Numbered from the stretch's first letter, positions 2,624 to 25,570 are shown. The stretch: 64,000 nucleotides of DNA from an uncultured Chromatiales bacterium (GCA_964526195.1 CAZGIH010000017.1:131888-195887); one strand, 5' to 3'. Notes: generated by a model not told the origin, from the letters alone. Numbers and translations are program-made.

Positions 2624-2938
2624 TCAAGACGCCTGTTTGGCCTTTTCCCTGGCTTCGAACGCCGCCATTTGCTCTGGAGTGGCCTCTTTCTGATACCGGG
2701 ACTTCCATTCGGCATATGGCATGCCGTAGACGATTTCCCGGGCTGCGTCATAATCCAGGGTCACGCCTCGCTCTTCTGCTGCGGCCACGTACCACTTGGA
2801 GAGACAGTTCCGGCAGAAGTCCGCCAAGTTCATCAAGTCGATATTCTGGACTTCGGGCTTGCTCCTCAGGTGCTCAACAAGACGCCGATAGACGGCCGCC
2901 TCGATCTCCTCGCGCTGATTCTCGGTTATTTCCGACAT
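2624..2938 (-). CDS. DUF1244 family protein
   Basis: 104 aa with the conserved DUF1244 pattern (NIDLMNLADFCRNCLSKWY...IVYGMPYAEWK). Confidence 0.6.
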   Translation of the reverse strand: MSEITENQREEIEAAVYRRLVEHLRSKPEVQNIDLMNLADFCRNCLSKWYVAAAEERGVTLDYDAAREIVYGMPYAEWKSRYQKEATPEQMAAFEAREKAKQAS

Positions 2939-3248
2939 TGCATTTGGATCCTTGAAAATTTCTTTGGGACTGTTTCAGTATACCCGCATACCAGTACCAC
3001 CCTATAAATTCGATATCCAATCAAATAAAGAAGTCAAGAATAGCCCCAATGGCATTGACTTATAGCGGCAAACCTTGCCGCAAGTAGGTTTCCGTCGCTA
3101 TTCAGGCATCGGCCCAACCCGTCGGAGATGCACTCTGTACCTCATTCGGCACCTTCCTTTACCAATAGGTTTATGCGGGGCTCGCGCACAGATGTGCCCG
3201 GATCGCCCCGAGTGCCAGAATGACAGTCAAGTACGAAGTTTAGATGAT

Positions 3249-3872
3249 GTTGCGGCACTCAATCTATGTGACTAAAATAGAATGAGCGGGTTATACTGGA
3301 ATCCCGTCGTTGCGGCTGGCCCTCAATCTCTAAGCGGCTAAAATTGCTCGCCATACACATGACGCCAAGGCACCGTTGCGGCTGGCCCTCAATCTCTAAG
3401 CGGCTAAAATTCGATTGTCCAGTTGATCGACCGCCAGGTGGTTGCGGCTGGCCCTCAATCTCTAAGCGGCTAAAATGATAAGGCTAATAAGCAACTAAAG
3501 CGGTTCGTTGCGGCTGGCCCTCAATCTCTAAGCGGCTAAAATGTGTGGAAGTTTGACATGACGCCCAAGCAAGTTGCGGCTGGCCCTCAATCTCTAAGCG
3601 GCTAAAATCCATGGGGATAATTACCATCCTCAATAATTGTTGCGGCTGGCCCTCAATCTCTAAGCGGCTAAAATAGGTTGACAAATAGACAGAAAGGTAT
3701 TTCAGTTGCGGCTGGCCCTCAATCTCTAAGCGGCTAAAATAAACGAAGGAGGAAGCAGTAATGGATCACCGTTGCGGCTGGCCCTCAATCTCTAAGCGGC
3801 TAAAATATTAGAAACCATGTTCCGTCAGTAGTCAATGTTGCGGCTGGCCCTCAATCTCTAAGCGGCTAAAAT
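3249..3872 (+). CRISPR. CRISPR array: 9 identical 36-bp repeats (GTTGCGGCTGGCCCTCAATCTCTAAGCGGCTAAAAT), 30-bp spacers, plus a degenerate 30-bp terminal repeat at 3249-3278
   Basis: Full repeats start at 3309, 3375, 3441, 3507, 3573, 3639, 3705, 3771 and 3837 (exact 66-bp period). A degenerate copy (gttgcggcactcaatctatgtgactaaaat) is followed by one more 30-bp spacer. The 36/30 geometry is typical of type II-C. Confidence 0.97.
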
Positions 3873-3881
3873 GCAACCACT

Positions 3882-3919
3882 GAAAGCCCTTGTTTTACAA
3901 GGGCTTTCCTTTTATCTTT
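3882..3919 (+). terminator. Rho-independent terminator between array and cas2 (10-bp stem gaaagccctt/aagggctttc, then T-rich tract)
   Basis: Perfect 10-bp inverted repeat with a 7-nt loop, followed on the + strand by cttttatcttt. It would stop array read-through into the convergent cas2. Confidence 0.6.
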
Positions 3920-3944
3920 ATCAGAATTATTCATACTGAAAGTC

Positions 3945-4289
3945 TCAAAAGAGGACTAGTTGGTCCAATTTTTTTTCACCACTTTCGCTTTTTCCGCCCA
4001 CGAAAGTGCGGGCATTAGCGTATTGTTTATCAGTAATTGTCATCATATGTACCTTGCCACGATTTGGCAAGGCTGAACACACCCTCTTCACTTGAGTTTC
4101 AACTGCCTCTTTGCTTTCGGCAAAACGTAAATAGACTGAAAATTGTGCCATCTCAAAGCCGTGGTCAAGCAAAAAATTTCGAAACTTCGTCGCTGCCTTA
4201 CGTTCAGCCTTTGTCCCTACGGGCAGATCAAACATGACATAAAGCCACATCATTCGATACCCGCTTAAAACTGGCCAATGTGTATTCAT
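3945..4289 (-). CDS. cas2: CRISPR-associated endoribonuclease Cas2 (type II)
   Basis: Motif MMWLYVMFDLP...ERKAATKFRNFLLDHGFEMAQFSVY matches type II Cas2. The start at MNTHW (4289) gives an ATGA overlap with the cas1 stop. The ORF-track upstream extension is rejected. Confidence 0.85.
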   Translation of the reverse strand: MNTHWPVLSGYRMMWLYVMFDLPVGTKAERKAATKFRNFLLDHGFEMAQFSVYLRFAESKEAVETQVKRVCSALPNRGKVHMMTITDKQYANARTFVGGKSESGEKKLDQLVLF

Positions 4290-5191
4290 TGTATTGTGCC
4301 TAACGGTCGCGTCCACCGGGGGAATTCTAATTTTTTGGCCTCTCCCGCATAGCAACGGGCAGCAGAAAGAGTCAAGTGGTGGAGGCATGTAGATATTGGG
4401 CTTGCACCAGTATCTGTATCCATGTCGTAAAAAAGAATCCGCGCAAGTTCTGGTTTTGTGTTTTTGTTTACACCAGTAGAACCCTCTTTCGCGAGATTGT
4501 AGACAAGCATATCTGCGGTTGGCCTGAATGGTTCCATTAGATCGTCGGCGAGGGCAAAGGAATTCCCACGTTGTCGGTGAGCTAAGCCCAAACTGGGGTG
4601 AAGTCCAGCACCCATAATTGCCCTAGCTACGCCCGCACGTAATACCGTATACGTGTAATTCAGCATTGCATTGACGCCCTCTGCATAGCGATCACGGCGA
4701 AAATCTTTGCCAAACAAAAGCGGCCAGTATCTACGTGCCGCTTGAGCCTCTATATTCTCTGGATCCCCGGAGCGTACGGAGCGAGCAAGACGATTGAATC
4801 CTTTATGCGTTGTTCCAACTGTTGCGAGAGTTATACCTTGTGCCTGGATTTTTGCAGAAACAATTTGAGCCCAAAGACGCTTACGCAGGGGCTTGGATGC
4901 TGACGCCTGGTCCGATATCCGCCCACCCTGTTCATAATGCCCGGACGCAGTCCAGAGAAAACCAGCCGGTCGATGATTCACACCACATACTACGAGAGGG
5001 ACACAGCGTTCGGTTAATGCAACTAAAAGACTGTTCGTATACGTAATGCCATGTGCACTTGCAATCACTGCTGCCACATCATCCAGTGGAACCCTCCCGA
5101 TCTCCTCGCCTTGTGATTCAATTGTAAGAAAGCCGCGAAACTTACTGATATGGTGGCCATCCTCGGCAATCTCTACAATTCGCCCGGTCAT
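4286..5191 (-). CDS. cas1: CRISPR-associated endonuclease Cas1 (type II)
   Basis: 301 aa Cas1-like protein. Its start overlaps the cas9 stop (TAATG). Confidence 0.9.
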   Translation of the reverse strand: MTGRIVEIAEDGHHISKFRGFLTIESQGEEIGRVPLDDVAAVIASAHGITYTNSLLVALTERCVPLVVCGVNHRPAGFLWTASGHYEQGGRISDQASASKPLRKRLWAQIVSAKIQAQGITLATVGTTHKGFNRLARSVRSGDPENIEAQAARRYWPLLFGKDFRRDRYAEGVNAMLNYTYTVLRAGVARAIMGAGLHPSLGLAHRQRGNSFALADDLMEPFRPTADMLVYNLAKEGSTGVNKNTKPELARILFYDMDTDTGASPISTCLHHLTLSAARCYAGEAKKLEFPRWTRPLGTIQ

Positions 5192-8100
5192 TAGCAGTGC
5201 TTTATCGGGAAAACTCGACCTATAGAATCAACACGTACAAGGCACGCACTTGCTGTCTTTAAGGTGGAATAACTTTTAATTTCGTAACGGAATAGATCGT
5301 CTGGGTCATTATGACGTTCGCCCAACGAACCTGCCTCGTAGTGAGGTGCGAGTTTCAGACGATTAGCCGAAGCATCCAAACTGCAAACTCTATAGATGGT
5401 TCGACCATTCCCAAAATCTGCCTCCACGAGATCGCCATTGTGTACCTTCATAACCAACTCGGCATTGGGATGTTTGTTGCGCCAGTTAGGTGTGAAGTTG
5501 GGTTGGTTGGCATCGAAGACAGTTACGCCTTCACCCAGCCATTTATCCTGCAATGAATAAATCTCAATGCGGTGATTGTCGCCAGCGGAATAGAGCTTAT
5601 AAAATCCATCGCCATGCTCAACTTTGTACACCGATTTTTCCGTTTTCAGTATTCGAATTCTGCGAATGCCGGAGCTTTCTCCAAATTCAGCTAATGCCTC
5701 CTTCAATTTATGACCAGCTCTTTTTGCGGCATCACGGATTTGTTGAAGATCCCGACGCAAAGAAGCATCATGTACGCGATCTATCTCACTATCTGTCAAC
5801 TCACTGATAGGTTTCCGGACAACAAGATTGTATTCTTTTCCTTCGATTGTCGCTTTAACCTCCCCGTAAGCTGTGCCTTCAAGTAGGGCTCCAGAAGTAA
5901 CGTGGATGTTGCTTTGTGCGTTAGGTGGAATTCCATGATCAGGCTTATGGCTAACAACCAATTTCTTCATTGAATTATCCAGTGCCTCCCAGTACCCCGA
6001 AAAAGGAATTGGGAAACTATTGTTGGGGAAAAGTCTCTCAAGATTCAATTCTTCGGAGCGACCTGATGCTTTTGATATCTGATCCAGCAACCCTATGTCA
6101 GTGCAGGCCAGAACAAACGCATCGACAGCGTGGTGTCTATGGTCTTTCCGATTTTTAATCTTTGTGCCACCTCCGGTTTGGATTGAAGGAATGGCACCAA
6201 GTCGCCACCGAGCTCGTAGCATCGCGGTAAGTCGTCCGGGAGAAGCATCGACACGTTTGCAGATATGCTCAAGATAAGTCTTTGCAAGGCGCGATACGTA
6301 CTGTGTGTCTGTTAGGTGTCGAGCTGCAAGGCCACCTTTCTCCTCAAAATCCTCCATGGCATCAGGAAAGAAGCGCCAAGCTTTTCTGGGAATAACCCGC
6401 TCAGCACGCTCAGCGATTTCAAGAAGTTTTTGGCCGTGCCATGCTTCAGCAGGTGCCTGGTTTAGTTTTTCCCGATTACTTTCACGTGTACACAACACCT
6501 TATTCATGAAACCGTCGTCAAGTGTGCGGGAATAAGGCAAAATATGATCTATTTCTATTTGATCACTGAACAGCGCGCACTTTGATATTTGTTCTCCCGT
6601 GTAGATGCACACTCGTTCATCTGGGGGGAGTTCGTGATACAGTCGCAGGCGAAGCCTGTTTGCATATGTGTCTTCTTCATTCAATGCATTGAGCTGGTCG
6701 CGGTTCCTGTCGTTCGCTTCTCTATTATCTTTGTTTTTCTTGTTTTCTTTTTGCTTACGCTCCTTACTCCACTTCAGTTCACGAGCTAGTTCAACCACAA
6801 TCCCATCTGGTGGGCCGTATGTCGCTATTAGCGCATTGATGATCTTGCGCAGTTGATTGAGTCCAATATGGACAGTCGGATTGGGCACTCTCCCTATCCG
6901 GTCCTGGCTCCCTTCTGGGGCAGATGGTCGAGAGATGACATGACGCGCAAGCACTTCACCATAGTATGGAAGTTTGGTCTGTTGATCGGGCCTCAGATCT
7001 GAGTGGTGTTCATCAATACGCTGGACAGCTTCGTCATAGGTTAAAGGTCGCTGATATATTTCTCCAGTCTCCGTATTCGTACATTCTTCCGATTCAGTTT
7101 CCATAACCCGGACAATATCACGCAACACTGAGCGGCCAAAGTTGCCGTGACCTTGAGGCAAACGCACATCAGAGATTTTCTCGGCCGCCTCCTGCTTCAG
7201 GTTAAATTTGTCTTGAAGCCACTGGTGAAGGCGTTCTTCATCCTCGTCAGACAAAAGACATTCTATAATCTCGTCTTTAGCCGTGCTGGTAAGTGAATCC
7301 CAAGCCTTTCCAAAAGAATTTTTTGCTCTTAGCTTGCTTGCAGTCTGATCCGATTGGAAGCCGTCGCGGCCTAAGCCCTCGTAGTTAAAACGTATGCCAT
7401 CCGGCAGTTGAAGTGCTTTCCTAAGAGCCTCGAATGCGACGACTCTTGATTGCCGCCGCTCCAGTACGGCCACAAGAGCATCGCGCTGGGGAAGAGTCAG
7501 GAAACGCTCCGGGGACCCGGGTCGAACAAGTCGTAGTTGGCACACGTCCTGAAGGATCCGGAATTTCTGAAAGAGCGGATGTGCCTTTGGCGTTCGCTCA
7601 CCCATATCAATTTCAATTCCCTGATACACAAAGACTTTGTTTTCGTCTGGACGCAATGTGCAACGTCCGACAATCTGTGGTTTAAGTGGCCTTTGCTCAA
7701 GGATCGTTTCCCTAATTTTTTCAAGCAATTGTTCAGTGAGAATATCTGGATAGTGAACTTTCTGCTCCGTCCAAATGCAATCAATCTCTTGCTCGACAAG
7801 TTCGCGTGTTGGATAAAAGTCATAGAGATTTTTGCTACCCTTAGATGTCGGCCGGAAGCGCACTGGCGATGGTGAGCCTCCGCCATTGTCATCCTTGCTT
7901 TTCTTGATTCGGTTTCCTTCTCTGTCGATGCGATACCCTTCCTTGTCTCTTCGGTGGCGATTAGCGAGAAATTCGCCAAGCGTCCGAAACTCTTGTTCCT
8001 CTACGATTTTCTCTTTGAGTGCTTGTGCTCCCTGCTTCATCGCACTTTTTTCATTATTATCTGCATCAGAGATCCGATTCGATTTAAATCCTCTTCGTTG

Positions 8101-8487
8101 ATTTATGTGGAACAAGGCACGACCGAGTTCAAACAAATCAAGCCGATGATCCAAAGCCCTGCAACGTAGCCAATAAGGATCAATTTTCTCAAGCTTTTTC
8201 CGCTCATCTTTATCACGAGGCATCAAGCCTGACTCGATCAAAATGGACATTAGACGATCTCGGCGGCGCAAAAAACGGTCCCGACGGCGGCGTGCACTGC
8301 GTGCGTCTCGACGATTTGCAGCCAAGGATGTCTTGGATTTCGGATCTTTTCCCGCTTCATCATTGGGGGTCAAAATGCGCACTCCCGCATCCAACACCCC
8401 CGAGGGGCGCTTATCCGCATCAAGCGTAACGGCACACCAACCAATAGAGTTGGTGCCCATATCCAAACCTAGTCGGTAAGGAGTCAT
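5191..8487 (-). CDS. cas9: Cas9 (type II-C, 1098 aa)
   Basis: RuvC-I at the N-terminus (GLDMGTNSIGWC), arginine-rich bridge helix (RRRRDRFLRRRDR), HNH (IDHILPYS...NKVLC), RuvC-III (HHAVDAFVLA). No csn2 or cas4 is adjacent. Lower GC than the flanking genes. Confidence 0.95.
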   Translation of the reverse strand: MTPYRLGLDMGTNSIGWCAVTLDADKRPSGVLDAGVRILTPNDEAGKDPKSKTSLAANRRDARSARRRRDRFLRRRDRLMSILIESGLMPRDKDERKKLEKIDPYWLRCRALDHRLDLFELGRALFHINQRRGFKSNRISDADNNEKSAMKQGAQALKEKIVEEQEFRTLGEFLANRHRRDKEGYRIDREGNRIKKSKDDNGGGSPSPVRFRPTSKGSKNLYDFYPTRELVEQEIDCIWTEQKVHYPDILTEQLLEKIRETILEQRPLKPQIVGRCTLRPDENKVFVYQGIEIDMGERTPKAHPLFQKFRILQDVCQLRLVRPGSPERFLTLPQRDALVAVLERRQSRVVAFEALRKALQLPDGIRFNYEGLGRDGFQSDQTASKLRAKNSFGKAWDSLTSTAKDEIIECLLSDEDEERLHQWLQDKFNLKQEAAEKISDVRLPQGHGNFGRSVLRDIVRVMETESEECTNTETGEIYQRPLTYDEAVQRIDEHHSDLRPDQQTKLPYYGEVLARHVISRPSAPEGSQDRIGRVPNPTVHIGLNQLRKIINALIATYGPPDGIVVELARELKWSKERKQKENKKNKDNREANDRNRDQLNALNEEDTYANRLRLRLYHELPPDERVCIYTGEQISKCALFSDQIEIDHILPYSRTLDDGFMNKVLCTRESNREKLNQAPAEAWHGQKLLEIAERAERVIPRKAWRFFPDAMEDFEEKGGLAARHLTDTQYVSRLAKTYLEHICKRVDASPGRLTAMLRARWRLGAIPSIQTGGGTKIKNRKDHRHHAVDAFVLACTDIGLLDQISKASGRSEELNLERLFPNNSFPIPFSGYWEALDNSMKKLVVSHKPDHGIPPNAQSNIHVTSGALLEGTAYGEVKATIEGKEYNLVVRKPISELTDSEIDRVHDASLRRDLQQIRDAAKRAGHKLKEALAEFGESSGIRRIRILKTEKSVYKVEHGDGFYKLYSAGDNHRIEIYSLQDKWLGEGVTVFDANQPNFTPNWRNKHPNAELVMKVHNGDLVEADFGNGRTIYRVCSLDASANRLKLAPHYEAGSLGERHNDPDDLFRYEIKSYSTLKTASACLVRVDSIGRVFPIKHC

Positions 8488-8537
8488 TGCGGAATTGGTC
8501 GCACAGCTATAGCGGAACCGGTTAGTGTAATATACAT

Positions 8538-8640
8538 AACTAAGGGTAGCCGCTTAGAGATTGAGGGTCACCCGTTAACAAGCCCTTCGGGGCATAAAAT
8601 TTGAGCCGGGTCGGGCAACTGATCCGGCTCACTTAATTTG
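8538..8640 (+). ncRNA. Predicted tracrRNA (anti-repeat plus two hairpins and a U-tract), divergent from cas9
   Basis: 8548-8567 AGCCGCTTAGAGATTGAGGG is a 20/20 complement of repeat positions 11-30. It is followed by a GCCC-UUCG-GGGC hairpin (8582-8593), a gagccgg...ccggctc hairpin (8603-8630) and uuaauuu. A possible extended -10 (tgTAATAT, about 8526-8533) lies upstream. Confidence 0.65.
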
Positions 8641-8759
8641 GGTAGGTGTTAGATGCGAACGGTGAAAGGTTTAACTTCGGTCATTGAAATCTCAAGCCTC
8701 GTACTCCGAACAGAGCCATAATGCGCCAAAATGAGCAGATTAGCTACTGCCGCGATCTC

Positions 8760-9344
8760 ATGCCCACGTCTCTCGTTCGACCTCCTCCGCTGACCGGCAT
8801 GATCCTTGCCGGCGGCATGGCACGCCGCATGGGCGGACAGGACAAGGGGCTGATCCCCTACCAAGGGCGCCCATTGATCGCCCATGTCCTTGAGCGCCTC
8901 GAACCGCAAGTTCAGGCCATTCTGATCAACGCCAACCGCAGTCACGACCAGTACGCGCAGTTCGGTCACCCCGTGATCGCGGATGCGGAAGACGGTTTTC
9001 TAGGGCCGCTTGCCGGCATTCTCGCCGGATTGCGCGCCGCTCGAACGGAACTGCTGCTCTGCGTCCCCTGCGACAGCCCGGAGGTCGGCCCGAACCTAGC
9101 GGCCAAGCTTGCCTCTCCTTTTGCGCAGGCAGGAACCCGGATCGCCGTTGCAAGTTGCGCCGGACGCCTGCAGCCGGTCTTTGCAGTGCTGCACACTGAT
9201 CTTTCGGATGCCCTGGACGATTTTCTTCGTCACGGCGGGCGTAAAATTGACGAATTCTATGGCGCGCAGGGCTTCGAGGAAGTCCCTTTCGAAAACCCCG
9301 ATGAATTTCGAAACATCAACACCCACGAGGAATTGACGCTCTGA
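8760..9344 (+). CDS. mobA: Molybdenum cofactor guanylyltransferase MobA
   Basis: LAGGMARRMGG...DKGL motif. The length from M14 matches E. coli MobA (194 aa). Confidence 0.85.
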   Translation: MPTSLVRPPPLTGMILAGGMARRMGGQDKGLIPYQGRPLIAHVLERLEPQVQAILINANRSHDQYAQFGHPVIADAEDGFLGPLAGILAGLRAARTELLLCVPCDSPEVGPNLAAKLASPFAQAGTRIAVASCAGRLQPVFAVLHTDLSDALDDFLRHGGRKIDEFYGAQGFEEVPFENPDEFRNINTHEELTL

Positions 9345-10025: not shown

Positions 10026-11312
10026 ATGCCCGAGCGAAAAATCAAATTGACCAACGGCGGGAAGGAAGTCGAATTATCGATCGCTGAGTCGACCGAAGGG
10101 CCGGCGGCGGTCAACATCAGCAATCTGTACAAGAAACGGGGCTATTTTTCGCTGGATCCCGGATTCGTCTCCACAGCCAGCTGCCGGAGCGAGATCACCT
10201 ACATCGACGGAGACCTCGGCCTTCTGCGCTACCGGGGCTATCCGATCGAACAACTCGCGGAATCCGGCAACCATATCGAAACGGCCTACCTGCTGCTCAA
10301 CGGTGAACTTCCGACACAGAATCAACTGGACACATTTGCTCAAGAAATCAAGTCAGAAACAAAGATTCCCAATGGTTCGTGGGAACTCATGCAGGCTTTC
10401 GAGAAAGATGCCCATCCAATGGCCATGCTGATGGCCGGGCTGGCTCATCTCGCTTCGATCTATCATTCTGAATTGGACGTGTTCGACGAGGCGTATCGCC
10501 AGCGCATGGCGCGGCGATTGATTGCACAGGTCCCGGTTCTGGCGGCGCTCGGGTACCGCTATCGAACCGGTCAAGATCCCGTCGACCCCGACCCGGAGCT
10601 CGACTTTACGTCCAATTTCCTCCACATGATGTTCGGCTCAGAGCCTGAGCCCCTCTTCTCGCACGCCATGGACATCCTGTTCCTCCTGCACGCCGACCAC
10701 GAGCAGAATGCCTCTACGTCCACGGTCCGGCTGTCCGGCAGTTCCGAGACCAGCCCGGTCGCGGCCGTCGCTGCAGGCGTAGCAACGCTTTGGGGACCGT
10801 CGCACGGCGGCGCCAACGAGGCCGTAATCCAGATGCTCGAAGAAATTCATGCTTCGGATGTCTCAGTTGAGGAATACGTCGAGCAGACCAAGAACAAGGA
10901 AAGCCATACCCGCTTGATGGGCTTTGGGCACCGGGTCTACAAGAATTACGATCCGCGCGCGAAGCTAATCCAAAAAATCTGCTACGACCTGCTGGAGAAA
11001 CACGGGGAAGGCAATCCGAACTGCCCGCTCCTGGAAACCGCCATGGCCCTGGAGCAGGCAGCCCTGAACGACGAATACTTCGTGGTTCGCAAGCTATATC
11101 CGAACGTTGATTTCTACTCCGGCATCATTCTCAGGACCATGGGGATTCCCTTGGACATGTTCACGGTAATCTTCGCTACCGCCCGAACATCGGGCTGGGT
11201 CGCACACTGGCTTGAGATGATGGCGGACAAGCAGTTCCGAATCGGCCGTCCTCGCCAACTGTATACCGGACATACCCAGCGAGACTACGTCGCGCTCGAC
11301 CAGCGCGGCTGA
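10026..11312 (+). CDS. gltA: Citrate synthase (type II)
   Basis: 428 aa carrying citrate synthase signature motifs (GFGHRVYKNYDPRA). Confidence 0.95.
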   Translation: MPERKIKLTNGGKEVELSIAESTEGPAAVNISNLYKKRGYFSLDPGFVSTASCRSEITYIDGDLGLLRYRGYPIEQLAESGNHIETAYLLLNGELPTQNQLDTFAQEIKSETKIPNGSWELMQAFEKDAHPMAMLMAGLAHLASIYHSELDVFDEAYRQRMARRLIAQVPVLAALGYRYRTGQDPVDPDPELDFTSNFLHMMFGSEPEPLFSHAMDILFLLHADHEQNASTSTVRLSGSSETSPVAAVAAGVATLWGPSHGGANEAVIQMLEEIHASDVSVEEYVEQTKNKESHTRLMGFGHRVYKNYDPRAKLIQKICYDLLEKHGEGNPNCPLLETAMALEQAALNDEYFVVRKLYPNVDFYSGIILRTMGIPLDMFTVIFATARTSGWVAHWLEMMADKQFRIGRPRQLYTGHTQRDYVALDQRG

Positions 11313-16601: not shown

Positions 16602-16677
<76 letters not shown>

Positions 16678-20469: not shown

Positions 20470-20674
20470 ATTTCAATCGTAATCAATCTCTATCCCGACA
20501 GGGATTAATATACGATCTTACCCAAGGAGAGATATGAGTATTTGTTCTGGTTTGCTTTTTTCTCTAACTCCATTGCCAGCAGCTATGTTTAGAATTTTCC
20601 TCTATATGGTTAGAACCCTTTCTCTCTCCCAGAAAAAACCATACATTCCTACGAAAACCACGTGGCGAATTATG

Positions 20675-21076
20675 TTAACCCCACCATTTGGCTAAATGTC
20701 CTATGCCCCAGACAAGAAGGCTTATGAACAAGACAATTGGGAGCATCCGAACCACAATGTAAAAGGTAAAGTCGAAAGGCTCCCATGCGTCCTCTAAAAT
20801 TTCTTTTAAAGGCTCCGGCAGTCGATCCCACCAAGCCTTTATTCTGCCTATGACGGAAGCAAGCGTCGGCAGTGGCTTCTTGAGCTTCGGGTATATAGCC
20901 CACAATAAAATCAGGGCACCAATACTGACACCGAGGTAATTCCACCAGTGCCACTCCGGTCCTATCATGCCAAGATTGCCCAGCGTGTTTTGCAGAGAGT
21001 TCACCACCTCTGGCCAACTTAAAGTAATCCATAAGGCTCCGAAGAGGATAGAGCCAAGCGTTGCTCGCGGGCGCAT
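20675..21076 (-). CDS. Small hypothetical membrane protein (low-GC island)
   Basis: 133 aa with TM helices and Trp-rich loops. Preferred over the overlapping 20670..21080 frame because of its hydrophobicity pattern. Confidence 0.45.
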   Translation of the reverse strand: MRPRATLGSILFGALWITLSWPEVVNSLQNTLGNLGMIGPEWHWWNYLGVSIGALILLWAIYPKLKKPLPTLASVIGRIKAWWDRLPEPLKEILEDAWEPFDFTFYIVVRMLPIVLFISLLVWGIGHLAKWWG

Positions 21077-21146
21077 ACAATTATTTTACTTCCCTACAAT
21101 AATTAAAGAAAAATTTTGGGAATTATGTAGCAAAATCTGCAAGGGC

Positions 21147-21175
21147 TTGACTTTTCCCAGAAAATAAGATATAAT
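21147..21175 (+). promoter_or_regulatory. Consensus sigma70 promoter for the transposase (TTGACT-17-TATAAT), followed by a 9-bp perfect palindrome at 21178-21204
   Basis: TTGACT 21147-21152 and TATAAT 21170-21175 with a 17-bp spacer. tctgcaaat-N9-atttgcaga lies between the -10 and the ATG and repeats the inner IR sequence (atctgcaa). Confidence 0.6.
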
Positions 21176-21213
21176 AATCTGCAAATAAGGAAATCATTTG
21201 CAGAGAATAAGAA

Positions 21214-22137
21214 ATGAGCAAGAGAAAAGCAGAAACCATCAGCGTCACCCAGTTGCTGAAAATGTTTTCAACCGAGCGCAAGGCCGTGGAATGGCTGGAA
21301 CAGGCTCGATGGGGTGGCACTCCGGTTTGCCCGCATTGCGGTGGCATCGAGAACATTAGCAAGCCGAAGAGCAAGCCGTTCACCTACTGGTGCAAGCCTT
21401 GCCGTAAGAACTTCACGGTCAAGACCGGCACCATCATGCACGCATCCAAGACTTCCACGCAGAACTGGGTGGTTGCCATCTATTCGGTGCTGACTGCCCG
21501 CAAGAGCGTGAGCAGTCTCCAGTTGAGCAAGGAACTGGGCGTACAGCAACGCACTGCTTGGTACATGCTTCACCGGATCCGCGAAGCTTGCCAGCAGGGA
21601 GACTTCAAACTGTTCGGTTCGGTTGAAGTGGATGAGACTTACATCGGCGGCCTGGAAGACAATAAGCATGAGAGCAAGAAACTTCATGTCGGCGGCGGCG
21701 GGGGCGGCAAGCAGGCCGTCTTGGGTATGCGTGAACGCGGTGGCAAGGTGAAGGCCATGCCGATTGCCGACACCACCAAGTCCACCTTGCAGGGCAAGGT
21801 GCATGAGAATGTCCGACCGGGTTCCACGATATACACGGACGAGAATTCGTCTTACACGGGTATCGCGCACCGGCATTACACCGTCAATCATTCAGCGAAG
21901 GAATACGTGAACGACATGGCGCACACCAATGGCGTGGAATCAGTTTGGGCAGTCCTCAAGCGCGGCGTGAATGGAACCTTCCACCATGTCAGCAAGAAGC
22001 ACCTGCATCGTTACCTGAACGAGTTCACCTTCCGTCTCAATGAGGGGAATTGCGAGATTGATACAATCGACCGCATGGATTCCCTGGTCAAGGGAATGGG
22101 CGGTAGGCGCATTCCCTACAAGGAACTGACAGCGTAA
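21214..22137 (+). CDS. IS1595-family transposase (N-terminal zinc ribbon + DDE domain)
   Basis: 307 aa: CPHCGG...CKPCRK zinc ribbon followed by a DDE-type core. Confidence 0.85.
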   Translation: MSKRKAETISVTQLLKMFSTERKAVEWLEQARWGGTPVCPHCGGIENISKPKSKPFTYWCKPCRKNFTVKTGTIMHASKTSTQNWVVAIYSVLTARKSVSSLQLSKELGVQQRTAWYMLHRIREACQQGDFKLFGSVEVDETYIGGLEDNKHESKKLHVGGGGGGKQAVLGMRERGGKVKAMPIADTTKSTLQGKVHENVRPGSTIYTDENSSYTGIAHRHYTVNHSAKEYVNDMAHTNGVESVWAVLKRGVNGTFHHVSKKHLHRYLNEFTFRLNEGNCEIDTIDRMDSLVKGMGGRRIPYKELTA

Positions 22138-22176
22138 GGGTGAATCATGCAAATTGTATAACTATGGGGATTGCCT

Positions 22177-22497
22177 ATGAAAACACTAATAACTACAACA
22201 ATTTCAGTCATGGCCTTGGCCACTCTCTTAATTTCTGGGCATGCCATGTCATATGATGAATTTGAGGGGAATATTCTTCATGAACGTTGCAAGAAAGGAG
22301 ACACGATAGGTCACAGGCGGATGGATATTTTGTTAGGGAAAGAAGATGAAATGTATCAGGCGCTAAAAATGGAGAGTGACCCGAAACAGATAAAAGCCTA
22401 TCTGGAAGCGATCATTGCACTTGACAAAAAAGGTATAGTTCTCGCTGAGGGGACGGATCGGTTTTGTGCATTAACTAATCCCCCGGCGAATAAGTGA
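22177..22497 (+). CDS. Small secreted hypothetical protein (IS passenger)
   Basis: Signal peptide MKTLITTTISVMALATLLISGHA. AT-rich. Confidence 0.4.
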   Translation: MKTLITTTISVMALATLLISGHAMSYDEFEGNILHERCKKGDTIGHRRMDILLGKEDEMYQALKMESDPKQIKAYLEAIIALDKKGIVLAEGTDRFCALTNPPANK

Positions 22498-22604
22498 AAG
22501 ACCGGTCACAATGACTGGCCTTTCTTTAGGGAATTATACGGAAGAATCCGAAAAACCCACCTGTTTCTAGGGATTTATGTAGGTAACTTGACAGGAGAAG
22601 CTTC

Positions 22605-23015
22605 ATGAACAACAAAGCTCAACGCATACTCGAAAATGTTCGACAAATCTTTGCGGTAACGTTGGGGTGGATTGCTTGGCTCCTTATTTTGGTTTGGATA
22701 GGAGCGATAACCATAACTGCCGAACAACACGGCATTTCTTTATTCGGGCCACTCCTTTTAACTACAGTTATTTTGGGCGGGATTTTGGGTGGAATATTAT
22801 TTGTCGGTCTGGCATATTATGCTTTCCCAAAAACAAAAAGAAAATTTCCATTCATTACTGCTTCTATCTGGGCCACGCTCGCTATGATTGTAGGCATAAA
22901 TAATATGGTGATTGATAATAGTAGCGGGCCTGATTACTTTACCTATGGGGCAAGCACGATAATTACATTATTAATTTTTTATGTCTTAAATAGATACCAC
23001 ACCGCCCGGTCCTAA
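22605..23015 (+). CDS. Hypothetical 4-TM membrane protein (IS passenger)
   Basis: 136 aa hydrophobic protein with GGILGGILF repeats. AT-rich. Confidence 0.4.
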   Translation: MNNKAQRILENVRQIFAVTLGWIAWLLILVWIGAITITAEQHGISLFGPLLLTTVILGGILGGILFVGLAYYAFPKTKRKFPFITASIWATLAMIVGINNMVIDNSSGPDYFTYGASTIITLLIFYVLNRYHTARS

Positions 23016-23151
23016 ATCGAACGTCTTTATCTGTCAGCCACGCCTGTCAAATTATCTATATAGTTCCCGGCCTTTCTCTATTGACAAAGGTACAAGATGG
23101 TGTTTAGCATATTGCAATAGGCTGTGCCAGCATAAACAGGTCTAGGGTGAT

Positions 23152-23388
23152 ATGCCAAGAGACATGGAATTAATTAGGATGATTCTGATCTATGTTCGGA
23201 ATCATGCAAAATCTGGTTCACTTGTTTTCCCTTCATTCGCTGGTTATGAAAAGGGGATGGTTGATTATCACGTCATGCTGTGCGAACAAGCCGGGTATCT
23301 CCAGTTGAATGAGGAAACGCTGGACGAAGAACGTCTAATCCTGAACTTGACTTGGGCTGGACACGAATTTCTATCGAAGGGGAAATAA
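23152..23388 (+). CDS. DUF2513 family protein (IS passenger)
   Basis: The N-terminus MPRDMELIRMILIYV matches the DUF2513 consensus (MKRDMDLIRKILL). Confidence 0.5.
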   Translation: MPRDMELIRMILIYVRNHAKSGSLVFPSFAGYEKGMVDYHVMLCEQAGYLQLNEETLDEERLILNLTWAGHEFLSKGK

Positions 23389-23776
23389 TCCCCCTCTTCA
23401 ATGTAATTCCCCTTCCATGGTCAAGAAACTAGACCCCGCCAACCATGAGCCGGTTTCACTGAAAGACTTTCAGGATGCGCTGAAGAGCATCCTGCTGAAA
23501 CCGATAGAGAAAAAGACCCGTTGGGAGAACCGGGAGCCGACCATGAAGGAGTTGTCTGTGAGATTCAAGTTGAAGCGGCGGAAATGACTTTTGCAGATTT
23601 TGCTACATAATTCCCAAAATTTTTAAATTCCATCAAGAAATAATATAGAAGAAAGTGCATGAAATCTACGCTTTTATCTAGTTAAAAGTGTATCATTAAT
23701 ACAGTAATATCTAGGATAAATTGCCGTAAATAAAAATTTATGATAAAATATTTTTGGTAATTCAACATTTTCATTC

Positions 23777-25084
23777 ATGGAAAGACTCGCATACAAAGAG
23801 CTTGTTAAATGGAAAAATCAAGCTCAGCGCAAGCCCGTTTTGATTGACGGGGCGCGCCAAACTGGAAAAACTTATCTTGTCGAAGATCTTTTTGGTGCTC
23901 AAGAATTTCGTCGCGTCCATAAACTTGATTTTCGTGCCAATCCAGAACTAGCCCGCATTTTCGAAGATGGCCTCTCCCCTGCCCAAATTATTGCTAATGC
24001 GGAAATAATGTTAGGCGAACGTATCGCTCCAGAACATGATTTACTGTTCTTCGACGAAGTTGGAGACTGCCAACAGGCAGTAGACTCACTTAAATATTTT
24101 GCTGAGGATATGCCGACCGGCTATATCTGTGCTACTGGATCAAATATCGGGTTGTTAGATTCTTTTCCTGTCGGAAAGGTTGAAAGTCTCGAGTTGTTTC
24201 CGTTATGTTTCGAGGAATTTTTACGAGAATTGGCATCCGAACCAGTACTAGACGCATTCATCCAGAACCGTAGAGGAGCCGCAATTCACCAAAAACTTTG
24301 GCAATACCTATGCGATTATTACTTTGTTGGGGGTATGCCAGAGGCAGTGAGTGCTTGGTCTCATGAAGTTCTCAGCATCCATGATCGAATTGGAATGGTC
24401 GAGGCAACCCACAAAAATATCGTTAGAGGATTTTGCCGTGATTTCGGGAAATATTCCGGTGGCGTACAGGCAATGCACATCGAAGCTGTGTTCCGAAACA
24501 TCCCAATGCAATTGTCTAAAACTATGGATGAATCCGTCAAACGCTATCGCTTTGGTGATGTGATTTCTCGGAAAAAACGTTATCAGGACCTGCGTGGGCC
24601 TATAGACTGGCTCGAAAAAACGCGCCTAGCGTGGAAATCACATCCCATTAGGTCAAGCCCAACGATTCCTCTAGCTCCTTTATGCAAAGAGAATGACTTC
24701 AAACTTTATTTATTCGATGTTGGAATTCTCGGCCATCTCCTAGGACTCAGATATGCCGACCACAAAGGTCAGATGATAGATTACAAGGGATTCATCGCCG
24801 AGAACTTTTTTTTGGTTGAATATCGCTCGCGCATCGGGTATCCGGTCTACAGTTGGGCGCAGAGAGACGCTGAAATCGAATTTCTGCACCGGGATAAGAA
24901 AGGTGTCATTATTCCCGTGGAAGTAAAGAGCGGTAAGCGCACACGGGCGCGAAGCCTTGGATCATATATCGGACGATACCAACCACAGCATGCGGTCAAA
25001 TTCGCCAATATTCAAAGATCGACACAAAGTGGGATTATTTCTACCTGGCCTTTGTACGATGTGCAGTTTTTGCGAAATCTTTAG
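23777..25084 (+). CDS. AAA+ ATPase, COG1373 (AAA_14 + DUF4143)
   Basis: Walker A GARQTGKT and Walker B LLFFDEV; 435 aa. Low-GC gene with an AT-rich upstream region. Confidence 0.75.
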   Translation: MERLAYKELVKWKNQAQRKPVLIDGARQTGKTYLVEDLFGAQEFRRVHKLDFRANPELARIFEDGLSPAQIIANAEIMLGERIAPEHDLLFFDEVGDCQQAVDSLKYFAEDMPTGYICATGSNIGLLDSFPVGKVESLELFPLCFEEFLRELASEPVLDAFIQNRRGAAIHQKLWQYLCDYYFVGGMPEAVSAWSHEVLSIHDRIGMVEATHKNIVRGFCRDFGKYSGGVQAMHIEAVFRNIPMQLSKTMDESVKRYRFGDVISRKKRYQDLRGPIDWLEKTRLAWKSHPIRSSPTIPLAPLCKENDFKLYLFDVGILGHLLGLRYADHKGQMIDYKGFIAENFFLVEYRSRIGYPVYSWAQRDAEIEFLHRDKKGVIIPVEVKSGKRTRARSLGSYIGRYQPQHAVKFANIQRSTQSGIISTWPLYDVQFLRNL

Positions 25085-25099
25085 AACGCGCCCTACAGA

Positions 25100-25570
25100 T
25101 CAGATAAATCCCAGCGTCCACTCGGCCACACCGAGCACAAGCAACGTCAGGATTCCCGCGAATAGGTCGTCCAGCATGATGCCGACCCCTCCACTGAACC
25201 GACGGTCTGCCCAACCTATGGGCCCCGGCTTGACAATGTCGAATATGCGGAAAAGCACGAACCCTGCAACCGCCCAAGCCAAGCTACGCGGTGCCGCCGC
25301 CATGGCGACTAGATAACCGGTCATCTCATCCCACACGACTTCTTTGGGATCAGGGTCTCCGAAAGTCTCCACCGCCTGCTCGCACAACCAGACCCCGATT
25401 ACCAGCATGATTCCCAGTACCAGCACGTAGAGAGACCAAGGATGTGCAGACAATCCGAAGTAGAGCACCGCCCCCAAGAGGGTTCCGACGGTGCCCGGAA
25501 TTTTCGGGCAATAGCCCACCCCGAAGCCAGTTGCCAGAAAAACGGTCAAGCCCTGCCAAGTGATACGCAT
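25100..25570 (-). CDS. pgpA: Phosphatidylglycerophosphatase A
   Basis: 156 aa membrane protein with the PGTVGTL and MLDDLFAG motifs. Confidence 0.85.
   Translation of the reverse strand: MRITWQGLTVFLATGFGVGYCPKIPGTVGTLLGAVLYFGLSAHPWSLYVLVLGIMLVIGVWLCEQAVETFGDPDPKEVVWDEMTGYLVAMAAAPRSLAWAVAGFVLFRIFDIVKPGPIGWADRRFSGGVGIMLDDLFAGILTLLVLGVAEWTLGFI

Follow-up and report, generated by a model that had tools for sequence, protein, structure and literature searches.

How did a complete CRISPR-Cas9 locus come to stand between two genes that are neighbours in related bacteria, and does it still work there? The locus in question lies at ~3006-8759 of a 64,000-nucleotide stretch of DNA from an uncultured Chromatiales bacterium (GCA_964526195.1 CAZGIH010000017.1:131888-195887), the whole of which we call the window. 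It separates the DUF1244 gene from mobA, with housekeeping genes on both sides. Our analysis indicates that an intact type II-C locus entered this DUF1244|mobA site as one block of ~5.7 kb, after the lineage of the window had split from its two closest sampled sisters, a reading to which we give a probability of roughly 0.85. The site is empty in 6/6 relatives and the cas genes contrast with their flanks in GC3, the guanine plus cytosine (GC) fraction at third codon positions; therefore, we regard the block as a lineage-specific horizontal insertion. Judged by its sequence, the locus is apparently a functional adaptive immunity system.

The insertion site is uninterrupted in the closest relatives

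A search with the MoeB-like protein returned six close relatives at 87-95% protein identity, the next match being at 55%, and these were examined over ~10 kb on either side of moeB. Four of them, OZ241993, OZ220694, OY288106 and OZ243950, are complete chromosomes of 1.57-1.85 Mb labelled 'uncultured candidatus Porisulfidus', and Porisulfidus is an outgroup in the SUP05 genome tree (PMC9123188). The host of the window appears to be close to the 'Candidatus Porisulfidus' metagenome-assembled genomes, which are sponge-associated Gammaproteobacteria near SUP05, and is probably a sponge-symbiont-like sulfur bacterium; the material came from sponges, sampled as SRR16090825-27. Flank genes of the window are 83-92% identical in DNA to those of the six genomes. 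Over the flanks as a whole, identity is 0.91 to each of L005 and L007, which are 0.934 identical to one another, and 0.83-0.85 to the remaining four; by these pairwise values, the window is probably sister to L005 and L007 together.

All six relatives carry the gene order msrQ-msrP-moeB-DUF1244 | mobA-mobB(-gltA). The same genes border the block in the window, with msrQ, msrP, a ThiF/MoeB-family gene and DUF1244 on the left and mobA, mobB and gltA on the right, much as a first-pass annotation, made by a model from the sequence, had described msrPQ, moeB/DUF1244 and mobAB. That annotation had also taken the block for a discrete insertion, horizontally acquired, between genes that stand side by side in relatives, and the comparison bears this out: DUF1244 and mobA are adjacent in every one of the six, ~70-130 nt apart (~320 nt in L010), and none of these genomes has cas genes between them. 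The ancient locus that it had named as the contrary outcome, present in all relatives at similar GC, finds no counterpart, as none of the relatives examined has the locus. Composition provides the second line of evidence. GC is 48.0% within the block against 58.7% in the remainder of the window, a dip already noticed at first pass, and GC3 is 0.42-0.44 in the cas genes versus 0.65-0.74 in the flank genes.

These observations bear directly on the opposite history, in which the locus is ancestral, was inherited vertically and has been precisely deleted in every sampled relative. Only six relatives were examined and CRISPR loci are often lost, which leaves some room for it. However, all six empty sites are collinear and conserved, share an invariant core and show no deletion scar; by the flank identities, at least three independent precise losses would be needed against one gain; and the GC3 of the cas genes lies ~0.27 below that of the flanks, although an ancient resident is expected to drift to host composition. 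We therefore consider vertical descent with repeated loss very improbable, and a single gain on the window's branch is the parsimonious history.

Both ends of the inserted block can be placed

The ends of the block and the sequence that adjoins them are as follows.

2939..3005, no strand: remnant of the native DUF1244|mobA intergenic region, which aligns with L005-L009 and has the invariant core CAGTAT(A)ACCCGC
3006..3248, no strand: left margin of the block, 243 nt past the array's far end
8641..8759, no strand: right end of the inserted block, reaching the probable true mobA start
8760..9344, plus strand: mobA, with its probable true start at ATG 8760, not 8721

Homology with the relatives stops at ~3005, at ccctataaat in the window (CCCGTACAAT in the relatives), and restarts at ~8745-8781; the true junctions lie at ~3005/3006 and ~8745-8760. 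The remnant at 2939-3005 is only 57-62% identical to the intergenic regions of the relatives, and relatives that are ~85% identical in flank genes keep 74-82% identity in this region. The adjoining 243 nt resemble neither the relatives nor any of the homologous cas loci that we fetched, have no Rfam match and show no repeat remnant scoring above shuffled controls; they are 100% identical across three independent Logan contigs (L002-L004), and this left end arrived together with the block. The motif TCGAT/CGAT is common to both junctions and was set aside as too short for significance.

Regarding the right end, the first residue of the 207-amino-acid (aa) open reading frame (ORF) to which MobA of the relatives can be aligned is residue 12 or 21, and TIGR02665 matches the 194-aa version of mobA from residue 12. 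In the relatives a TACAAT box lies ~35 nt upstream of mobA; its counterpart here is at ~2998-3005, on the DUF1244 side. Moreover, mobA now lies downstream of the terminator of the trans-activating CRISPR RNA (tracrRNA) on the same strand, where no promoter-like site was detected. The insertion has split mobAB from their native upstream region.

Could the block instead come from another organism of the metagenome, joined to this contig during assembly or binning? Its composition is foreign, the source is a metagenome assembly, and short-read contigs break within the array. Nevertheless, Logan contig L001 links mobB-mobA to cas9-cas1-cas2 and the array, and contigs L002-L004, from three runs, link the oldest spacer (spacer 0), the degenerate repeat beside it and the 243-nt flank to DUF1244-moeB-msrPQ, all at 100% identity to the window, so that both junctions are reproduced. 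Only continuity across the array depends on the window assembly, and the two halves end in the same repeat. The probability of a chimera is accordingly close to negligible. No empty-site allele was found in the same sequencing runs, where exact look-ups of the DUF1244 and MobB proteins gave only cassette-bearing contigs.

The block encodes a minimal type II-C system with an intact Cas9

Between these ends, the block contains the following features.

8538..8640 (5' end approximate), plus strand: predicted tracrRNA, upstream of cas9 and transcribed away from it
8487..5191, minus strand: cas9, 1098 aa; Pfam HNH_4, RuvC_III and Cas9_a, NCBIfam TIGR01865
5191..4286, minus strand: cas1, 301 aa, type II (NMENI) subtype; Pfam Cas_Cas1
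4289..3945, minus strand: cas2, 114 aa; Pfam CRISPR_Cas2, TIGR01573 at 67 bits
3873..3944, no strand: region between cas2 and the array (leader side), AT-rich, 36% GC, with a terminator hairpin at 3882-3908
3309..3872, plus strand: CRISPR array of nine identical 36-nt repeats and eight 30-nt spacers (s1-s8)
3279..3308, plus strand: spacer 0 (AGAATGAGCGGGTTATACTGGAATCCCGTC), the oldest of the array, with the degenerate repeat on one side and the first perfect repeat on the other
3249..3278, plus strand: degenerate terminal repeat, 30 nt, with internal deletions and its 3' CTAAAAT kept

In 3006-8759, the only ORFs with a family match are cas9 (603 bits against TIGR01865, cut-off 100), cas1 (236 bits against TIGR03639 cas1_NMENI, cut-off 120) and cas2, whose raw ORF reaches 4388 and whose gene call in L001 is 114 aa with a 4-nt overlap with cas1. 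Since there is neither csn2, as in II-A, nor cas4, as in II-B, the system is type II-C with the minimal architecture. The first-pass annotation had proposed just such a complete minimal system; cas9, cas1, cas2, array and tracrRNA all lie where it had placed them, and no further ORF matches a cas family.

The 4.5 kb of cas genes contain no frameshift or stop codon, and the RuvC-I/II/III and HNH catalytic residues of Cas9 are intact: aligned with 11 homologues, the protein shows no variation at D9, E566, H648, N671, H785/H786 or D789. The public entry P0001 (1089 aa), an otherwise identical Cas9, is annotated from Met10 (window 8461-8487), nine residues short, and therefore lacks the RuvC-I catalytic Asp9; the 1098-aa start is backed by homologues. 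What had been called a low-complexity insert, the peptide KSKDDNGGGSPSPVRF, lies at about residues 190-207, within a loop of the recognition (REC) lobe that differs in length from one family member to another. The loop is 8-13 residues longer here than in most homologues, and homologue P0010 adds ~60 residues at the same place. Nor is the enzyme especially compact, as had also been suggested: 1098 aa is the usual size of a type II-C Cas9, and the best solved-structure matches have 1082-1154 aa.

The best-matching chains, of 1055-1154 aa, are those that we take, from their PDB codes, to be Geobacillus- and Neisseria-type type II-C enzymes. The first of them, 9ar4_A (1082 aa, E 1e-56), is ~35% identical over 587 alignable residues, far from the 90% identity to a characterised enzyme that had been envisaged at first pass as the mark of a known protein. 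It resembles the window's Cas9 in domain order and size, and the motifs GLDxGxxSIGW, ELAREL, DHxxPYS...NKVL...N and HHAxDA align; it differs in that the REC lobe and the C-terminal region that interacts with the protospacer-adjacent motif (PAM) hardly align. Chains that we read, by their PDB codes, as SpCas9-type match at E 1e-10 only.

Relatives of the system

The Cas9 protein search returned more than 4000 proteins at E <= 1e-20, the nearest of which, the identical entry P0001 aside, is 68% identical. Few hits bear genus names, and all that do are Alphaproteobacteria. The system belongs beside an uncharacterised II-C clade (Microbaculum marinisediminis, Hyphobacterium sp., Algihabitans albus and many metagenomic members) whose Cas9 proteins are 55-68% identical over their full length. 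It shares with this clade, alphaproteobacterial by its names, the order cas9-cas1-cas2, 34/36 nt of the repeat, the tracrRNA and a hairpin between cas2 and the array. It differs from the clade in its host, here a relative of gammaproteobacterial sponge symbionts, in a lineage-specific, compensated change of repeat and anti-repeat, and in the 8-13 additional residues of the REC loop.

The nearest Cas9 homologues (65-68% identical) lie in unrelated neighbourhoods of 61-67% GC. Six of the closest were examined for the composition of cas9 itself, and have 63-67% GC and GC3 of 0.77-0.84, versus 48% and 0.44 here. The type II-C clade of these homologues is often tied to mobile elements. In two homologous loci, L086 (13660-14000) and L087 (11900-14900), DDE transposases interrupt or divide the arrays, and in a third, L088 (537-2774), two tyrosine-integrase genes lie beside cas9.

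The array

The perfect repeat, GTTGCGGCTGGCCCTCAATCTCTAAGCGGCTAAAAT on the plus strand, occurs in nine copies from 3309 with a period of 66 nt, the last at 3837. Together with the degenerate copy, the array comprises one degenerate and nine perfect repeats and nine 30-nt spacers (spacer 0 and s1-s8). The repeat was not found in a literature search, and its core has no match in JGI metagenome contigs. Spacer GC declines from 50-60% in s0-s2, where s1 and s2 resemble the host in GC, to 33-47% in s5-s8.

The region between cas2 and the array includes the AT-rich stretch at 3900-3960 that the first-pass annotation had read as a junction of the insertion; it is internal to the block and belongs to a segment with a terminator hairpin. 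This hairpin, at 3882-3908 (GAAAGCCCTTG...CAAGGGCTTTC), is conserved in L086 (10560-10586) and L085 (~10558-10591), loci whose Cas9 is ~65-68% identical to that of the window, and could act either as a bidirectional terminator or as an element of the leader.

Spacers s1 (3345-3374) and s4 (3543-3572) have the core ACATGACGCC in common, with AAG directly behind it or 1 nt further on, and in one reading frame each of the two spacers encodes M-T-P-(K/R). The two may target homologous sites in related elements. A 17/18 match of s4 within cas9 (6936-6953) was dismissed as chance (E 0.09).

A tracrRNA co-varies with the repeat

The tracrRNA region consists of an anti-repeat at ~8547-8578, a small hairpin (GCCCUUCGGGGC) and a 13-bp terminator hairpin at 8602-8631 with a U-rich tail, and its fold has a z-score of -4.2. 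Rfam has no family match for it; therefore, the call is based on structure and comparison. Pairing with the repeat gives a duplex between the CRISPR RNA (crRNA) and the tracrRNA at -55.7 kcal/mol, in which 24 pairs are contiguous. Six homologous loci (L085-L090) carry this element at the same place, upstream of cas9, and across homologous loci the 13-bp terminator stem has five compensatory pairs and no broken one. Furthermore, anti-repeat and repeat co-vary, with GATTGAG/CTCAATC here versus GATCGAG/CTCGATC in the homologues. This compensated change indicates selection on pairing after the split from the homologues.

Because the terminator of the tracrRNA lies on the plus strand, the crRNAs would be read from the plus strand too, antisense to the cas operon. 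Every repeat ends, in the crRNA sense, with a -10-like hexamer at its 3' end, TAAAAT here and TATAAT/TATACT in homologous arrays, which is retained even in the degenerate repeat. Promoters inside repeats have precedent in the type II-C arrays of Neisseria meningitidis and Campylobacter jejuni (reviewed in PMC5965381). In the mechanism that we propose, cas9-cas1-cas2 would be transcribed on the minus strand, and both array and tracrRNA on the plus strand; the -10-like hexamer of each repeat would probably be where short crRNAs begin, in the N. meningitidis/C. jejuni style; and the crRNA:tracrRNA duplex would load Cas9, leading to cleavage of PAM-flanked DNA. A σ70 scan of 2900-4000 that required both hexamers found only two weak sites, near the degenerate repeat, and none at the nine perfect repeats.

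The Nme1Cas9 locus of N. meningitidis offers the closest parallel in organisation. It likewise has a cas9, cas1, cas2 operon without csn2 or cas4, 36-nt repeats with 30-nt spacers, and a tracrRNA; the Cas1 of the window fits the NMENI-subtype model; and in both the array apparently runs opposite in sense to the cas genes, with repeats whose 3' end is a -10-like hexamer, a feature described for N. meningitidis (PMC5965381) and predicted here. The two differ in that the tracrRNA here is upstream of cas9 and read away from it, the -10 here lacks a TG extension, and the Cas9 sequences are only distantly related. Chains that are presumably Nme-type, going by their PDB codes, match at E 1e-46 to 1e-48, mainly over Cas9 residues 533-807.

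Intact system or recent relic?

Several observations weigh against our reading of an intact, inserted system. The GC of the cas genes is below that of both the host and every close homologue. As the homologues are all higher in GC, the immediate donor is unsampled and lower in GC. No terminal inverted repeats, target-site duplication or integrase/recombinase ORF was found at or in the block, the best inverted or direct matches between its ends being 14-17 nt with mismatches and gaps. The relatives could bear other cas loci beyond the region viewed around moeB. Concerning activity, the 3' 20-mers of s1-s4 and s6-s8 have no exact match in IMG/VR, and the whole array gave only chance-level hits against INPHARED phages (E 7). 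A σ70 consensus scan of 8400-8800 found no promoter-like site, and the -10 hexamer of the repeat is without the TG extension that, as we presume, Neisseria repeats have. Cas9 activity here is a prediction, as are transcription and the 5' ends of the crRNAs.

A transposon-, insertion sequence- or integrase-borne island was considered and rejected, given the lack of inverted repeats, duplication and recombinase. The 47-spacer array of the homologous locus L086, searched against plasmids for a PAM at the family level, matched only other CRISPR arrays.

Some of these points would also fit a recently inactivated relic, intact in sequence but deprived of expression or interference. No spacer has a detectable target in viral collections, the array is short with nine spacers, no strong consensus promoter was detected for cas9 or the tracrRNA, and the chromosomes of the sister species are small (1.57-1.85 Mb). 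Against this stand cas genes free of disabling mutations with all catalytic residues kept, nine identical repeats, and an anti-repeat that compensates the lineage-specific repeat change. In addition, phages of sponge symbionts are probably scarce in the collections searched. Taken together, inactivation seems unlikely to us, and an intact system remains our preferred reading.

Spacer 0 matches the empty form of the insertion site

New spacers would join at the cas2-proximal end of the array, so that the degenerate repeat and spacer 0 would form its oldest part. Over positions 8-30, the 23 nt by the repeat, spacer 0 is identical, in inverted orientation, to the intergenic DNA of the uninterrupted DUF1244|mobA site in L005 and L007 (blastn-short 23/23, E 3.7e-7; blastn 26/27, E 3e-5). 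The protospacer lies at 1365-1394 in L005 and 9620-9649 in L007, 21 nt upstream of the DUF1244 start codon. In L005 the target reads CCGGTGCGCGGGTTATACTGGAATCCCGTC and is followed on the PAM side by GAGAACAAAC, where L007 has GAGAGCAAAC. Mismatches with the sister alleles are confined to positions 1-4 and 7; the chance of all five falling within the first 7/30 positions is 1.5e-4. In Neisseria, transcription starts a few nt after the -10 and guides are 24 nt long. If the start follows the -10 in the same way here, positions 1-7 of spacer 0 are expected to be absent from the mature crRNA.

The window's own copy of the target, in 2939-3005, carries an indel as well as several mismatches within the PAM-proximal half and matches at only 4/10 PAM-proximal positions. 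The 23-mer itself has no match in IMG/VR or JGI metagenome contigs; therefore, the target is not a known mobile element. We considered and rejected a role for spacer 0 as a small CRISPR-associated RNA or natural-guide regulator (Francisella type) of the host DUF1244 operon, as its PAM-proximal half mismatches the host's own copy.

The source of spacer 0 would have been the host chromosome, ~300 nt away from the array, or else a sibling strain. Most likely it is a relic self-derived spacer whose target in its own genome has since diverged, so that the guide no longer matches that genome; capture from sibling DNA is the reading that we list beside it. Chromosomal protospacer hotspots of E. coli include the region upstream of the CRISPR array (reviewed in PMC10011333), and self-targeting spacers that are tolerated typically have mutated targets or mutated adjacent repeats (PMC6990116). 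Spacer 0 resembles the latter in matching the chromosome of its own lineage, in adjoining a mutated repeat and in having a diverged target. It differs from them in that the match is to the empty allele of the block's own insertion site, and is exact over the 23 nt expected as the mature guide. We found no description in the literature of a spacer that matches the empty allele of the insertion site of its own CRISPR block.

Spacer 0 might alternatively be a maintained guide against the uninterrupted DUF1244|mobA allele and not a dead relic. The cassette occupies the very site that is targeted; the target copy linked to the cassette has diverged and would be uncuttable; and the 23 nt are identical to two sisters without CRISPR, while 4-5/7 of the upstream, probably untranscribed positions differ. 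We nevertheless hold this distinctly doubtful, and favour the relic self-derived spacer.

Other features of the window

A second island of low GC, down to 42%, lies at ~20500-25100 between a radical-SAM gene and pgpA. It contains an IS1595-family transposase (21214-22137), a DUF2513 protein (23152-23388) and an AAA_14/DUF4143 ATPase (23777-25084), as well as several ORFs without a family match. Within the 64-kb window, only a tRNA gene at 16605-16677 on the minus strand reaches the gathering threshold of an Rfam family.

Implications

The system itself is ordinary, a divergent yet typical type II-C Cas9 added to a large uncharacterised clade. Its acquisition represents a clean, datable gain of a defence locus by a lineage with small sister genomes of 1.6-1.9 Mb. 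The separation of mobAB from their upstream region may alter how the genes for the molybdenum cofactor's guanine-dinucleotide form are expressed.

The one feature of wider interest is spacer 0 and its match to the block's own empty site. If the maintained-guide reading were true, incoming DNA of CRISPR-less siblings, able to replace the cassette by recombination, would be cut, and the locus would resist its own loss. Likewise, were the cassette delivered to a naive cell, the guide could cut the empty site and so favour copying of the cassette into it, as in a homing gene drive. A spacer-0 guide active against sibling alleles would thus make this a natural CRISPR-Cas locus that protects or propagates its own chromosomal position.

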